From: Octopus vulgaris
Lineage: Eukaryota
DNA: 64,000 nt
Assembly: GCA_951406725.2 (NCBI GenBank)
Contig: OX597817.1
Location: 166,346,001-166,410,000 of the forward strand
Direction: 5' to 3'
This document shows positions 5,686 to 58,244 of this stretch, piece by piece. The notes under the pieces are model-generated. The model made no database searches. It was given only the letters and a program-made list of their open reading frames with translations, and had not been told where the DNA came from. Made by a program: the position numbers and the translations under genes. Numbering within the stretch: the stretch's first letter is position 1; each line of letters opens with the position of its first letter.

Positions 5686-6075
5686 TCACACACATACACA
5701 TATATATGTATCATTAAGGCATTAAGAGAGAGGAAAGGACAGAGACAGAGAGGCAGAGAGACAGAGAGAGACAGACAAAGAGAAATAGGAAAACGGAAAT
5801 TGAGACACATATCAATTTTGTTCATGGAAACTCAGATACTAACAGTCATTGGGTCTTGTCCAGCGAAACATTTAGCCGGATTTCCCCTTGTATGGCTCAT
5901 TTAAATGTGGATCAAATTAATATTATAATATTGACATGCATTGGAATCTACCGATTTTAATGAAGAAGCTGTCATGTTCAATATTGAACGATCTTGCTTG
6001 TATGTATGTATGTATGTATGTATGTATGTATGTATGTATGTATGTATGTATGTATGTATGTATGCATGTATGTAT

Positions 6076-6106
<31 letters not shown>

Positions 6107-6191
6107 TTGTACACTCACACTCACTCACACACACACAAGCACACACGCACGCACACATATTTCAACGTATGTTTGTAAATTTATTTAACAT

Positions 6192-6803
<612 letters not shown>

Positions 6804-7854
6804 ACAAAAACTATTTATTTCATTTACCAATGGTAAATGAATTTGATGTGTGTTAAGGTTGGGGAAAGACGCGTACAGGTAATGACATTTCATTTTGAGC
6901 TAGTAGGACTGCGATGTTCTACTAGCCCTTGCGTCCAAGCCGTAGACGTCTGACAGGGCAGAGAAGGGAGCAAGTCATTAACAGGTGAGTCATCGATATC
7001 ATCAGCAGGCTTAACAACTTCAGTGTCTCTGAGAGAAACAAGCTCACAATGAATTGCTTCAGTAGCTTTGCATTCCTGATGCTGTTTCTGGGTAACAAGC
7101 TTCCTTAAGGCTCCTATTTACTTAAGCCCTTCGCTTCCTATGGACCATAGGCCATTTCTGATGACTTTTCGCCTCTGTTCTGGACTCTGAGCACTTTTTT
7201 CGTGCTTCTTTACATTTGGATCCTTGCTTCCTTGCAGCATCCTTTCGGATTTTTCTGCAACGCGTTATGTTTCCTTAAGCGAAGGCCTTCTTCTTCCGGG
7301 TCTTGTTGATTTTAAATGGTCATTGATTGATGCTTCTGCAACCTTGCACAACTACCACGGCCAGCAACAACAACTCATCCACCATCATTACCATGATCAA
7401 CATCAGTATTATGACCGTTCGCCACCAAAACGTCCATCCGCTTCAACCACTCTATAACTACCATCGCAACGTCGACTATCACAACCACAACCGCCATCTT
7501 AACCACAGGCCGTGACAGCCATCGACCGTAACTAACATCAATACCACCATTACAACTATCAACACTGCTACCACTCCTACCATCAACACCTCTTCCACCA
7601 TCGTGACCACCCGCACCTTCTCTACCAAGAGAACCACCACTGCCGCCGCCGCCACCTCCGCATTACTCCACCAGCACTTCCACCATCTACACAACTACTA
7701 CTGCTCATTCACTGCTCATATGACTACCACCAAGAGTGGTAGTGGTGGTGGTGGCTGAGGTGGTGGGTTGTGGTGGGTGGTGATGGGTGGTTTATAGTGG
7801 TAATGGTAATCTTGGTAGTGGTGAAAGTGTTGTTTTTGTGAGTGGTGGTAGCGC

Positions 7855-8330
7855 TGGTGGTGGTGGTGGTGGTGGTGGTGGTGGTGGTGGTTTAGTGGTT
7901 GTGGTAGTTTTGGTGGTGGTGGTGGCGTGGTTGTAGTGGTTTGGGAGGTGGTGGTGATGATGGTGGTGGTGATGGTGGGGTGGCTTGGTGGTTGTGGTAG
8001 TTTTGGTGGTGGTGGTGGCGTGGTTGTAGTGGTTTTGGAGGTGGTGGTGATGATGGTGGTGGTGATGGTCGGGTGGCTTGGTGGTTGTGGTAGTTTTGGT
8101 GGTGGTGGTGGCATGGTTGTGGTGGTTTTGGAGGTGGTGGTGATGATGGTGGTGGTGATGGTGGGGTGGCTTGGTGGTGGTGGTGGTGGTGGCGTGGTTG
8201 TGGTGGTTTTGGAGGTGGTGGTGATGATGGTGGGGTGGTGATGGTGGTGGTGATGATGGTGGTGGTGATGGTGGGGTGGTGATGGTAGTGGTGGTGGTGG
8301 TGGTTGTCATGGTAGCAGTGGTGGTGGTTT
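7855..8330. repeat. GGT-derived minisatellite with 93-bp unit (about 3.5 copies)
   Basis: Unit GGTTGTGGTAGTTTTGGTGG...GGGGTGGCTTGGT recurs at about 7897, 7990 and 8083. Confidence 0.85.
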
Positions 8331-16883: not shown

Positions 16884-17269
16884 GACAAATATAGTTGTAG
16901 GAATGTATTTGTATGAAGTTTTTATATCATCTTCGGGAGATGATTATAGAAATGTCTTACCGCATTTGATACGGATTTCAAATGAAAAGGGATGATGAGT
17001 AATCCCAAGGATCGATTATTTTCTAAAATCAACATGCCACTGAGTGATAGACAGGCAGAGAAAGGACATCTATGGAGAAGTGCTTCTTCCGCAATAAACA
17101 TCGTCAATACACCTGGCATATTCCTAAATGCCTAAATGCAAACTCTGACCAACAAGTTGGAACACACACACACCAACATGCATACACACACATACACAGA
17201 CAAACATATATAAATACAAAAGTATGTATTTATTTATGTATGACTCTATGTATGTATATATGTATGTGT

Positions 17270-17658
17270 GGAGGCGCAATGGCTCAGTGGTTAGGGCAGC
17301 GGACTCGCGGTCATAGGATCGCGGCTTCGATTCCCAGACCGGGCGTTGTGAGTGTTTATTGAGCGAAGACACCTAAAGCTCCACGAGGCTCCGGCAGGGG
17401 ATGGTGGTGATCCCTGCTGTACTCTTTCACCACAACTTTCTCTCGCTCTTACTTCCTGTTTCTGTTGTACCTGTATTTCAAAGGGCCGGCCTTGTCACTC
17501 TCTGTGTCACACTGAATATCCCCGAGAACTACGTTAAGGGTGCACGTGTCTGTGGAGTGCTCAGCCACTTACACGTTAATTTCACGAGCAGGCTGTTCCG
17601 TTGATTCGGTCCAACCGGAACCCTCGTCGTCGTAACCGACGGAGTGCTTCAAAAAAAA
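17270..17658 (+). mobile_element. tRNA-derived SINE, family C
   Basis: A-box TGGCTCAGTGG and B-box TTCGATTCC; near-identical to 55995-56378; A-tail; flanking ATATGTATGTGT duplication. Confidence 0.88.
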
Positions 17659-28447: not shown

Positions 28448-28529
28448 TCTATGTGGTAATATATCATCAATAAAAACAAGATCTGACGCAATTTGTTTTC
28501 TTGGTTCCTCCTATTTAACTGCCTCTACA

Positions 28530-28754
28530 AAGACACGTGTACCCTTAACGTAGTTCTCGTGGAGATTCAGAACGACAGAGAATATAAGGCTGGTCCTTGG
28601 AAATACATGTACTACTCATTGTTGCCACATGTGTGGACTAGAACAACGTGAAATAAAGTGCCTTGTTCTAGAACACAACGCATCGCCGGGAATTGAACTC
28701 ACGATATTACGATCGTGAGCTGAATACCCTAAACACTAAGCCACGTGCCTTCAC
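28530..28754 (-). mobile_element. SINE family D, diverged
   Basis: Head-to-head with the copy at 28773. Confidence 0.7.
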
Positions 28755-28772
28755 TGCTTCCTATTTATGTAT

Positions 28773-29100
28773 GAGGGCGCGTGGCTTAGTGGTTAGGGCA
28801 TTCGGCTCATGATCGTAAGGTTGTGAGTTCGATTCCCGGCTACGCGTTGTGTCCTTGAGCAAGACACTTTATTTCACGTTGCTCCAGTCCACTCAGCTGG
28901 CAAAAATGAGTTGTACTTGTATTTCAAAGGGTCAGCCTTGTCACTCTCTGTGTCACGCTGATTATCCCCGAGAACTACGTTAAGGGTACACGTGTCTGTG
29001 GAATGCTCAGCCATTTGCACGTTAATTTCACGAGCAAGCTGTTCCGTTGATCGTATCAGCTGGGACCCTCGTCGTCGTAACCGGCGGAGTCTTTTTTAAA
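28773..29100 (+). mobile_element. tRNA-derived SINE, family D
   Basis: TGGCTTAGTGG and GAGTTCGATTCC boxes, TGTGTCCTTGAGCAAGACACTT body, 3' half shared with family C; ATTTATGTAT flanking duplication. Confidence 0.85.
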
Positions 29101-29861: not shown

Positions 29862-29902
<41 letters not shown>

Positions 29903-29905
<3 letters not shown>

Positions 29906-30563
29906 CATAAGGGACTAAAGCCATCTGAATATGGCTAGGGACAGGGCAGGGTGGTGGGGGTGTTACTGTTGCATTTAGCCCCAGGCGAACATCAACGTCG
30001 CCAGATAAGCTTGACACCATCACGGCGTCCTTTATCCTGCAAAGGGAGATAATTCCCCGATGAAGCCCTTTGCAGGACGCCGTGATGGTGTCAAGCCTAT
30101 CTGGCGACGTTGATGTTCGCCTGGGGCTAAATGCAACAGTAACACCCCCACCACCCTGCCCTGTCCCTAGCCATATTCAGATGGCTTTAGTCCCTTATGT
30201 TATGGAGCAGTTACTGTCTATATCTCATTTAGAGAATTATTATTGCTGTCGAACAGATTTTCGAAATCAGCAAATGTATTTTGCTTGAAAATCTATATAT
30301 AAATATCCTGCAGAGTGAGTTGTTCGTCGAGGAAGCGGGGGCCTACCACACGTTGATGATAGGCAATACACCTTGAAACCTAGGTCCGTGTGTGGTTTCC
30401 GCTTCATCGGGGAATTATCTCCCTTTGCAGGATAAAGGACGCCGTGATGGTGTCAAGCCTATCTGGCGACGTTGATGTTCGCCTGGGGCTAAATGCAACA
30501 GTAACACCCCACCACCCTGCCCTGTCCCTAGCCATATTCAGATGGCTTTAGTCCCTTATGTTA
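29903..30563 (+). mobile_element. Retrozyme/Penelope-pLTR-like element: inverted copy, partial tandem copy and a 361-nt unit
   Basis: 29903-30066 is the reverse complement of about 30401-30563; 30066-30202 is a direct repeat of the unit's 3' end. (TA)n lies on both sides, and the unit contains an HHR. Confidence 0.8.
30332..30405 (+). ncRNA. Type I hammerhead ribozyme motif, C3U variant, palindromic stem III
   Basis: CACACG-TTGATGA-tAGG(CAATACA)CCTt-GAAA-CCTAGG-TC-CGTGTG; distal stem GAAGCGG/CCGCTTC. Confidence 0.7.
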
Positions 30564-30585
30564 TATATATATATATATATATATA

Positions 30586-30972
30586 CTAGCAGTATCGCCC
30601 GGCGTTGCTCAGGTTTGTAAGGGAAATAACTATAAAGCATTTTTAGAGAGTTATAGCCAAAAAATAGCAAAAAAATGGAAAAAAAATTATGGTAAATTTT
30701 TTTTTGAGAGTAAAAAAAGGTTGAGTTGCGTCCCCTAGACAGTCTGTGGTTTGTTTTTTTGATTCTCGACCCCATGTCGAATTTATCGATTTTTTTCAGA
30801 ACTGGGGTTAACTTTTCAAAATTTTCGCTGCGTTAGTTTTGAATTATGACATTGGGCTATGTGTGTGTCAAGTTTCATCAGAATCGGTTGAAAGCCGTGG
30901 TCAGGGTGAGGGTACGAGAAAACAGACACACAGAAACACGCACAGACAAACTGCCGTTTATATATAGAGAGA
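30586..30972 (-). mobile_element. Non-autonomous Helitron
   Basis: Minus strand starts TCTCTCTATATAT and ends with hairpin CCTGAGCAACGCCGGG plus CTAG; this end is shared with the copies at 48117 and 52367. Confidence 0.78.
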
Positions 30973-30978
30973 TATATA

Positions 30979-31149
30979 TATATAATATTAATTAGAGACA
31001 AAACCACTATTTTGCAAAACAAACAAGGAAAGACTTAATCAATACATAAAATTTTAATAAAAACATAAAATTTTAATTTTATGTATTGATTAAGTCTTTC
31101 CTTGTTTGTTTTGCAAAATAGTGGTTTTGTCTCTAATTAATATTATATA
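30979..31149. repeat. Perfect inverted repeat (arms of about 75 bp)
   Basis: 30979-31053 is the reverse complement of 31075-31149. Confidence 0.9.
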
Positions 31150-48116: not shown

Positions 48117-48503
48117 CTAGCAGTATCGCCCGGCGTTGCTCGGGTTTGTAAGGGAAATAACTATATAAGCATTTTTAGAGATGTAAAGTATAATAGCCAT
48201 CTCAATATGGCTAACCACAAAGGGGGAGGTGTTACTGTAGCTTTTTACGTTCTGAGATTTAATAATAAATTTTTAGAGAGTTATATATGCCAAAAATGCA
48301 TTAAAAATGGGAAAAATTGATGGTAAATTTTTTTTAAATCGTAGACTCATCGTAGACGCGCGCTAATACCCAGAAGGACTCGATATGAATCACGACTATG
48401 AGATACACGGTTTTGGTTAAACTGCACCGCAAAATGTGGGAGTAGTTAGGAATCTAAATCGTAGGAGACAGACAACACACAACCTCTCTTTTATATATAA
48501 AGA
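48117..48503 (-). mobile_element. Non-autonomous Helitron
   Basis: Minus strand TCTTTATATATAAAA...CCCGAGCAACGCCGGG hairpin...CTAG; inserted between A and T (empty paralogous site at about 50536). Confidence 0.85.
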
Positions 48504-55887: not shown

Positions 55888-55994
55888 TATCATCATCATC
55901 GTCATCATCATCACCATCGTCGTCGTTGCTGTCGCCGTCATCGTCACCATCATCTGTATCCTTCACGTTTCCACAGTCCTTTTATCGCCGCTCT

Positions 55995-56378
55995 GTGGAG
56001 GCGCAATGGCCCAGTGGTTAGGGCAGCGGACTCGCGGTCATAGGATCGCGGTTTCGATTCCCAGACCGGGCGTTGTGAGTGTTTATTGAGCGAAAACACC
56101 GAAAGCTCCACGAGGCTCAGGCAGGGGATGGTGGTGATCCCTGCTGTACTTTTTCTCCACAACTTTCTCTTACTCTTACTTCCTGTTTCTGTTGTACCTG
56201 TATTTCAAAGGCCGGTCTTGTCACTCTCTGTGTCACGCTGAATATCCCCGAGAACTACGTTAAGGGTACACGTGTCTGTGGAGTGCTCAGCCACTTACAC
56301 GTTAATTTCACGAGCAGGCTGTTCCGTTGATTCGGATCAACCGGAACCCTCGTCGTCGTAACCGACGGAGTGCTTCCA
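55995..56378 (+). mobile_element. SINE family C with 14-bp target-site duplication
   Basis: TSD TTTATCGCCGCTCT at 55981-55994 and 56379-56392. Confidence 0.92.
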
Positions 56379-57335: not shown

Positions 57336-57656
57336 CTAGTAGTAGTAACAATGACAACAGCAGCAGAAGCAGTACTACGAACCGTTTCTCCAAATTCATC
57401 ATTTCGTGTTCTGACGAGACCAAGATATCCAGTTCAGTATAAAAAGGGTCACTAAAAATACTTGATGACGTAAAACAAGAAATTTAGATTCACTAAAAAT
57501 TAACTTACTTTTAATAAGAACAAACGTTATCTGAAATTACCTTAATTCTGGTAATGAAAGCAAGGGAAGACAACCCTGCAATTTTAATTCATTGTAAATA
57601 AATATGGAAAATACCGGAGACTAATTTTGATCTTTAAAAATACTGTGGTAATTCTT

Positions 57657-57693
57657 GACATGTTTCGGTCTATTAGAGAGCTCATCAGCGGCT
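57657..57693 (-). ncRNA. Hammerhead core lacking the 3' strand of stem I
   Basis: Minus strand: AGCCG-CTGATGA-GCTCT(CTAAT)AGACC-GAAA-CATG-TC, then unpaired sequence. Confidence 0.45.
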
Positions 57694-58244
57694 ACTAGGT
57701 TTTATAGTGTCAAAGGTATTGCATTGATTGTTAATGACTGGACATTGAGTGGAGAAATAACGTGATAGAATGACTGATGTCATAAACGAAGATATTTTAA
57801 TTATTTAAGTTTATAGTATTAATGATGAGAGTCATTATCATCTAAGCGTTAAATACTGGTCAAAAAGAGCAAGGGAGGTAACCTAAAGTTTTCAAATGAA
57901 CTATTCTGATCGAAAAGCAAGGGAGATAACCTGGAATTTTCGAATGACAGGTTTTTAGAAGAAAAAGTCTTGTGAAAATAACAAGTGACATTAAGTTGGA
58001 ATTTTCTGTAACTGAACTTAAATATATAGGGTACAGTTTTTTTTCTGACGCAGCACAGAATCCTAAAATTGCTTTGTTTTCGGAAGTTTGAAAGACAAAT
58101 TCGATTTGGACAACATTTGAACGCGAAACATTTAATATCACTCGGTATTTAGAAAGCAGTATTTTGCCACTTGTACCTCTGGGGTCCATCGCGGGATTAC
58201 TTATGTTCGCCAGCTAAATGGACTGGAGCAAACGTAAAATGAAG

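Follow-up and report, generated by a model that had tools for sequence, protein, structure and literature searches.

The locus at 29903-30563 of the window (the whole 64,000-nt stretch of Octopus vulgaris DNA that was analyzed) is, with a probability of roughly 80%, one insertion of a non-coding repeat of ~362 nt that carries a predicted dimer-type hammerhead ribozyme and was likely copied from circular or multimeric RNA into (TA)n by the enzyme of a Penelope-like element (PLE); its core, U3·G8, likely represents a wobble stage between the U3-A8 and C3-G8 cores. By testable traits, and as far as the sequence alone can tell, the 362-nt family is an animal non-LTR retrozyme. The family carries PLE insertion marks, is young and has no reading frame of its own; judged by its coding content, it is not an autonomous PLE.

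Architecture of the locus

In the sequence and the alignments, the locus consists of an inverted arm, a partial direct copy and a full unit placed between (TA)n tracts (Table 1). The sequence-only reading had described an inverted copy of the unit's 3' part with one mismatch, then a partial direct copy that lacks 7 nt, then a full unit of 361 nt, the same terminus abutting TA at both outer ends. Our alignments agree on each of these points, both outer ends being unit position 361, and the parts that had been assigned to a type I hammerhead (UUGAUGA, the U·U mismatch, the palindromic stem III, the GUC site and the long bulged stem I) were all re-located. A run of C has five residues in both partial copies and four in the full unit, and the five-residue form occurs in 143 of the 153 family copies counted; therefore, the family unit is ~362 nt long and the full unit at this locus has a 1-nt deletion. 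The tail segment, internal at this locus, forms one of the two termini in most other inverted copies. The right arm is 498 nt long and crosses the predicted cut site, and a read-through RNA of the locus is predicted to form a 163-bp hairpin that keeps helix I intact. Family arrays contain at least two consecutive complete ribozymes. Since only one hammerhead core is present in the whole locus, there is no second ribozyme with which this copy could pair in cis; it is probably an ordinary single copy and a dead end.

Table 1 Features of the hammerhead-bearing locus, in window coordinates
Feature	Position	Strand	Remarks
(TA)n target tract, left	29864..29902		39 nt
Inverted arm, unit positions 199-361	29903..30066	-	outer end is end site A; one mismatch; 5-C run
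5'-truncated direct copy	30066..30202	+	7-nt deletion; 1 nt at 30066 common with inverted arm
Full 361-nt unit	30203..30563	+	outer end is end site A
Tail segment, unit 1-45	30203..30247	+	between end sites A and B
Predicted type I hammerhead, stem I extended and bulged	30332..30405	+	distal stem I 30332-43/30394-405
Helix I	30347-52/30387-92	+	
Core box UUGAUGA	30353..30359	+	3-8 pair is a U3·G8 wobble
Stem-loop II	30360..30374	+	U10.1·U11.1 mismatch and 3 further pairs
GAAA	30375-78	+	
Stem III, 8-nt palindrome	30378..30385	+	
GUC, predicted cleavage after C17	30386	+	cleavage inferred from the hammerhead consensus
Hairpin upstream of end site A	30530..30547	+	loop varies among related families
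(TA)n target tract, right	30564..30585		22 nt; a separate repeat follows

Two end sites and the template of the insertions

Inverted copies of the family end almost always at one of each of two sites, A (unit 352-361) and B (unit 38-47), which lie 41-45 nt apart. We collected 85 distinct loci with U3-type cores (33 from the best-match list and 52 from the pattern list), 63 of which were inverted; 57 of these paired A with B, two had A at both ends, none had B at both ends and four had an odd end. A+B pairing thus accounts for 57 of the 59 callable loci (p = 6e-15 against 0.5). The C3-type set comprised 26 loci, 18 of them inverted (16 A+B, 2 odd), and over both classes 73 of the 75 inverted loci with both ends callable are A+B. 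One of the two A+A loci, L025, has a tail remnant just outside; the locus described here is therefore the only clean A+A case, and two identical outer ends, which had been put forward as typical, turn out to be the exception, with one clean case among the 63 inverted U3-type loci. TA flanked the insertion on both sides in 55 of these 63 loci, and non-TA targets showed duplications of 10 bp (L017) and ~12 bp (L118).

The two arms within one locus differ by a median of 1 of 95 nt versus 7 between loci (47 loci), and an arm's own partner is its best match in 26 of the 47; where the arms meet head to head, they have few bases or none in common. Arms longer than one unit were found on the A side in 28 of 57 loci and on the B side in 27 of 57. 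Since about half of the arms exceed one unit and the right arm of the present locus crosses the cut site, the template was a circle or a multimer rather than a cut linear monomer. Arm lengths anticorrelate (rho -0.34) in these loci, which were picked for a core or a full unit, and we draw nothing from this value.

According to the accessible parts of the PLE literature, inverted PLE insertions are known for a tail of 30-45 nt at one of their ends (PMC8557442, PMC3846280), the tail of an in vitro PLE system is the stretch between two reverse transcriptase (RT) start sites, and in that system both strands are cut and extended and a dimer is predicted (PMC11167929). The family's paired end sites, inverted 5' arms, TA targets and 10-12 bp duplications support the earlier proposal that Penelope-type machinery moved it. 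The hairpin just upstream of end site A, which the related families also retain, may be a candidate landing site of the PLE protein.

Three core states and their succession

The genome searched comprises 2.8 Gb in 227 contigs, ~30 of them chromosome-size. A DNA search returned 1,723 family candidates, and the 40 that were scored are 95-100% identical across most of the unit. An exact core pattern with positions 3, 4, 7 and 8 left free matched 1,431 times genome-wide; the first 100 matches listed, all on one contig (C1) and counted by eye, comprised 84 C3C4-G8, 8 U3·G8 and 8 U3-A8 cores, a tally in which arrays inflate the C3C4-G8 class. A U4-type pattern, in which U4 was fixed, gave 255 matches, with U3 in all of the first 100 listed (58 G8, 42 A8), and a C3-type pattern gave 1,231, of which the first 100 listed were all C3C4. 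Reversed-pattern controls gave 0, 2 and 0 matches for the U4-type, C3-type and free-position patterns, respectively. Since C3-G8 with U4C is the majority core in these searches, U3 is not fixed in the family; the idea of U3 as a family trait was overturned by the free-position and C3-type patterns together with public run X1, which has CC at 30353-54 across most of its read depth. By itself, C3U reduces hammerhead activity. Alignment mapped 214 segments at 109 loci (88 U3·G8, 73 C3C4-G8, 52 U3-A8 and 1 canonical), counts that are not frequencies because the loci were chosen by core class; position 10.1 is U in all 214.

Arrays of the family have a period of 360-362 nt and hold up to 12 cores per locus, and the unit has no long reading frame. 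In a comparison of 26 loci against 54, the insertions with C3-G8 cores were the longer ones (medians of 838 and 702 nt, maxima of 4,405 and 1,433 nt; p = 0.010). The unit is present in 20 listed public runs from 5 organisms, none of which is catalogued as RNA.

In a 98-row tree built from one copy per locus and 6 of 18 sister rows, with positions 3, 4, 7 and 8 masked, the C3-G8 copies form a clade (100/98) nested in U3·G8, which is in turn nested in U3-A8; this tree needs 4 core-state changes against a minimum of 3, and its bootstrap had not converged. A second tree of 53 rows, which included two outgroups and random subsamples and left out 9 long-branch or mixed rows, gave the identical order, with support of 92/76 for the branch uniting U3·G8 and C3-G8. 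On the 53-row tree, U3·G8 as one clade was rejected (p-AU 8e-5) and a root on the C3-G8 branch was not (p-AU 0.22). Within-locus divergence, an age proxy that conversion may homogenize in long arrays, was 1.44% for old and 1.06% for young U3-A8 copies, 1.06% and 0.82% for two U3·G8 groups and 0.39% for C3-G8; two of ten comparisons reached p < 0.05, those of the old group with C3-G8 (p 0.006) and with UUGAUGA (p 0.016). The placement of the U3·G8 copies as a grade between two Watson-Crick core states is well supported in these alignments, and the direction U3-A8 to U3·G8 to C3-G8 is favored, short of proof. We hypothesize that cleavage rate could have caused this succession.

We also asked whether A-to-I editing had produced the altered cores. 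The private substitutions show symmetry (A>G 25, G>A 22, T>C 34, C>T 25) and the fixed differences between subfamilies are also mixed; editing therefore finds no support.

Evidence for a ribozyme

The core boxes, three helices, NUH site and 3-8 pair of a type I hammerhead are all present in the unit, the 3-8 pair being a U·G wobble at this locus. The 361-nt unit folds with z = -4.7, and none of 100 shuffles folded as well. The minimum-energy monomer fold mispairs the core, and the fold with an open core costs ~3 kcal/mol more. Rfam gave two weak unrelated matches in the unit and no match of its hammerhead models there, nor any in the window among the 150 of 232 matches listed; the identification therefore rests on motif and covariation. 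In 18 distinct hand-picked rows, whose kinship inflates such tests, 89% of cells are paired and 37 cells have changed on both sides, a level reached by none of 500 shuffles and compared with 24-49% in slid controls. The 3-8 pair in these rows is U-A in 8, C-G in 6 and U·G in 4, and is unpaired in none. A palindromic stem III, which is described as a requirement of dimer-type hammerheads in the accessible text of PMC4209133, is kept in 79 of 88 U3·G8, 52 of 56 U3-A8 and 72 of 72 C3-G8 copies.

A possible, if doubtful, alternative is that a PLE mobilizes a repeat whose ribozyme is idle, uncut multimers serving as the template and the core changes being neutral hitch-hikers of successive master copies. 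No subfamily core is canonical, all having U10.1·U11.1 plus U3-A8, U3·G8 or U4C; however, each of U·U at 10.1/11.1, U3-A8 and U4C is a natural variant reported as active or tolerated in the accessible part of PMC3088659. The four subfamily majorities differ at 5 of 46 ribozyme positions (3, 4, 8 and the two central palindrome bases) and at 52 of 313 positions outside, so that the ribozyme is not conserved significantly above the rest of the unit (p = 0.39). All of these fixed changes except U4C nevertheless keep the 3-8 pair or the palindrome: the two central bases of stem III swap together between subfamily majorities, and the swap arose within the U3·G8 grade (39 vs 40 copies). The insert ends lie 177 and ~220 nt away from the cut site, and ribozyme mutants did not impair PLE insertion in vitro in the parts of PMC11167929 at hand, which would fit an idle ribozyme; the covariation among related families and the longer C3-G8 arrays argue for a working one.

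Candidate source of the enzyme

No PLE coding piece continuous with the unit was found among the reading frames of the 85 loci, and tblastn across the family loci collected by then gave separate neighbors only; likewise, the window contains no RT or GIY-YIG frame, and no such frame is continuous with the unit in these family loci. An autonomous PLE homologous to the unit was not found in a GIY-YIG search (150 of 6,136 candidates scored), in 62 PLE loci, by BLAST or with a nucleotide HMM. The PLE loci examined showed only separate retrozyme insertions beside PLEs, and no PLE frame lay upstream in any of 20 loci from an older related family.

It is quite improbable that an autonomous Penelope-like element has the unit as its terminal repeat (pLTR), the copies being 5'-truncated ends, even though the tail, inversion and TA targeting are pLTR traits in the available portions of PMC8557442 and PMC3846280. 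In the 362-nt copies, a stop-free frame of ~97 codons extends from the core over both end sites (L019:1501-2631), but it is absent from the sister family and probably due to chance; moreover, the unit is flanked by itself on both sides in arrays of up to 12, and no continuous coding body occurs in the loci examined. A pLTR may be the ancient origin of the unit.

A young autonomous element (L067, L070, L278, L283 and L287), with many near-identical copies, has a 479-codon frame upstream of a 781-codon frame encoding RT and GIY-YIG domains. Its two ends lie 40 nt apart, its targets are TA, and all three inverted copies seen are A+B, which makes it, by behavior, a plausible driver of the 362-nt family; no sequence common to the element and the unit was detectable. 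The terminal repeat of this element holds a degenerate U3-A8 hammerhead-like string.

Related and neighboring elements

Other hammerhead repeats in the genome include a sister family of ~355 nt with U3-A8 and G10.1-C11.1 (L087-L116), an older group with C3-G8 cores (L257-L276) and a distant U3-A8 element (L049:1-275); a motif common to the related repeats has 5,115 genome matches. In locus L061, an inverted arm (6038-6230) joins a sister-family ribozyme to the 3' end of a different abundant family, likely by a template switch. This joined family was considered as the autonomous partner and is instead, on the 28 of 30 loci covered, another hammerhead-bearing PLE-type end.

This chimera indicates that template switches happen in these elements, and two cores occur within single loci (L129, L170), as would be expected if the U3·G8 copies were recombinants of U3-A8 and C3-G8 lineages. 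Downstream of the core, however, the alleles that are private to C3-G8 reach only 0-5% in U3·G8 copies, and alleles shared on both sides of the core occur in a subset only, which fits nesting and not a crossover between positions 4 and 8; this allele pattern makes recombination very unlikely. That the palindrome of the present locus is an assembly or fold-back artefact is hardly credible: its junction at 30066 is bridged by no listed contig of four public runs, which in itself is no evidence either way, and its A+A form is unusual, but its arms differ by a mismatch, an indel and the 7-nt deletion, and 81 of the 111 loci examined are inverted, with a different junction in each.

Locus L061 also contains an element of ~1.65 kb (6440-8100), flanked by a 12-bp duplication, that interrupts a sister-family unit just 5' of its ribozyme. 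The element (L061, L289-L320) has a T-rich start, a zinc-knuckle frame (20.9 bits against a cut-off of 20.8, in one of three), no RT and an AATAAA end. In a sample of L061 plus 20 of the other 39 scored, whose loci may not be independent insertions, a hammerhead core lies 25-38 nt after AATAAA in 17 of 21 loci, with a degenerate core in 3 more by eye, and duplications of 9-18 bp occur in 15 of 21; its targets include at least three different hammerhead repeat families. It looks like a candidate non-autonomous, retrozyme-targeting LINE relative that would live as a parasite of retrozymes. Neither the window nor the 362-nt family showed this element, and a limited literature search found no paper on it.

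Within the window, self-BLAST, a tandem-repeat search and hammerhead scans found no 404-nt unit, to which the sequence-only reading had thought the family unrelated. A second, unrelated inverted pair with 80-nt arms (98% alike) lies between TA runs 400 nt downstream of the locus (30979-31149) and is probably another PLE-type end. A repeat at 48117-48500, which we take to be helitron-like, has the same start as the repeat at 30586 and includes ~65 nt of the sister retrozyme family (48182-48245). Young copies of what is, by eye, a tRNA-type SINE occupy 17267-17650 and 55994-56376 (96% alike), the latter with a duplication at 55980/56360, and an inverted SINE pair lies at 28586-28939 (within 28528-29093). 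An isolated hammerhead-like string at 57688 on the minus strand (within 57640-57710) has a canonical first box, and was rejected on its broken stems I and II.

Discussion

We propose the following cycle for the family. Tandem arrays would be transcribed, and two ribozymes would pair via the palindromic stem III and cut after GUC. The monomers would be circularized as in coral, mussel and axolotl retrozymes. A dimer of a PLE RT-endonuclease would then nick both strands in (TA)n, and two cDNAs would be primed on one RNA or on sibling RNAs, one from site A (unit 361) and the other from site B (unit 41-45), the sites and their pairing being those observed. As the arms show, the cDNAs run through the cleavage site, often exceed one unit length and end up joined head to head. 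At the present locus, both arms would have begun at site A, or the tail would have been lost later.

A more far-reaching version of this reading is offered tentatively, at somewhat less than an even chance. The family would record a complete compensatory walk from U3-A8 through U3·G8 to C3-G8, in which the wobble state remained mobile and under selection for catalysis, and restoration of the pair, together with U4C, then led to the largest burst and the longest arrays; at the same time, the near-obligate A+B pairing would mean that a single PLE dimer primes the two strands of the target at a pair of fixed, distinct positions of one retrozyme RNA. The mainly open-access main texts that were searched describe neither a U3·G8 subfamily nor a walk of this kind, which is weak evidence of novelty. 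The words 'ribozyme' and 'retrozyme' do not occur in the main text of an Octopus vulgaris repeat annotation (PMC13282606).

As described in the accessible parts of Cervera & de la Peña 2020 (PMC7229834) and Li, Clavereau & Pollet 2026 (bioRxiv 2026.07.22.740005), animal non-LTR retrozymes resemble the family in their non-coding tandem unit of 150-450 nt (350-390 nt in mussel), a single type I hammerhead in each unit, dispersed copies that range from monomers to multimers and a proposed PLE dependence. The family differs in that its core is never canonical (U3-A8, U3·G8 or C3-G8 with U4C, always with U·U at 10.1/11.1). The PLE link, which these sources base on co-occurrence and pLTR homology, is in the 362-nt family a measured tail, inversion and A+B pairing, whereas the pLTR homology argued for animal retrozymes was not found for it in the PLE loci fetched. 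According to the available text of the preprint, cleavage also failed in 8 of 9 predicted dimers of frog retrozymes.

Endonuclease-containing PLEs (PMC8557442, PMC3846280, PMC11167929, each in its accessible portion) share with the family partial tandems, an inverted 5'-truncated arm, the 30-45 nt tail, AT-rich targets and duplications of ~10 bp. In contrast to them, the family has no RT or GIY-YIG frame and is 362 nt rather than 3-5 kb long. The U3-A8 hammerheads of Schistosoma PLEs (PMC4209133) and natural hammerhead variants (PMC3088659) show, in the text at hand, the same 3-8 covariation and the same tolerated departures. Relative to the known U3-A8, U4C and U10.1·U11.1 variants described there, what differs here is a whole amplified U3·G8 subfamily between U3-A8 and C3-G8.

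The link between the integration of animal retrozymes and PLEs has so far come from co-occurrence and pLTR likeness. The 362-nt family puts the two-site signature of PLEs on a hammerhead retrozyme, at scale, and leads to the sharp prediction that, in the in vitro PLE system, each strand would use a single start site, A being paired with B. Its three natural cores, set in a near-identical backbone, offer a direct way to find out whether the spread of retrozymes depends on ribozyme rate; if the favored direction is right, the family would also be a rare dated record of a catalytic core in which a compensatory change went by way of G·U.
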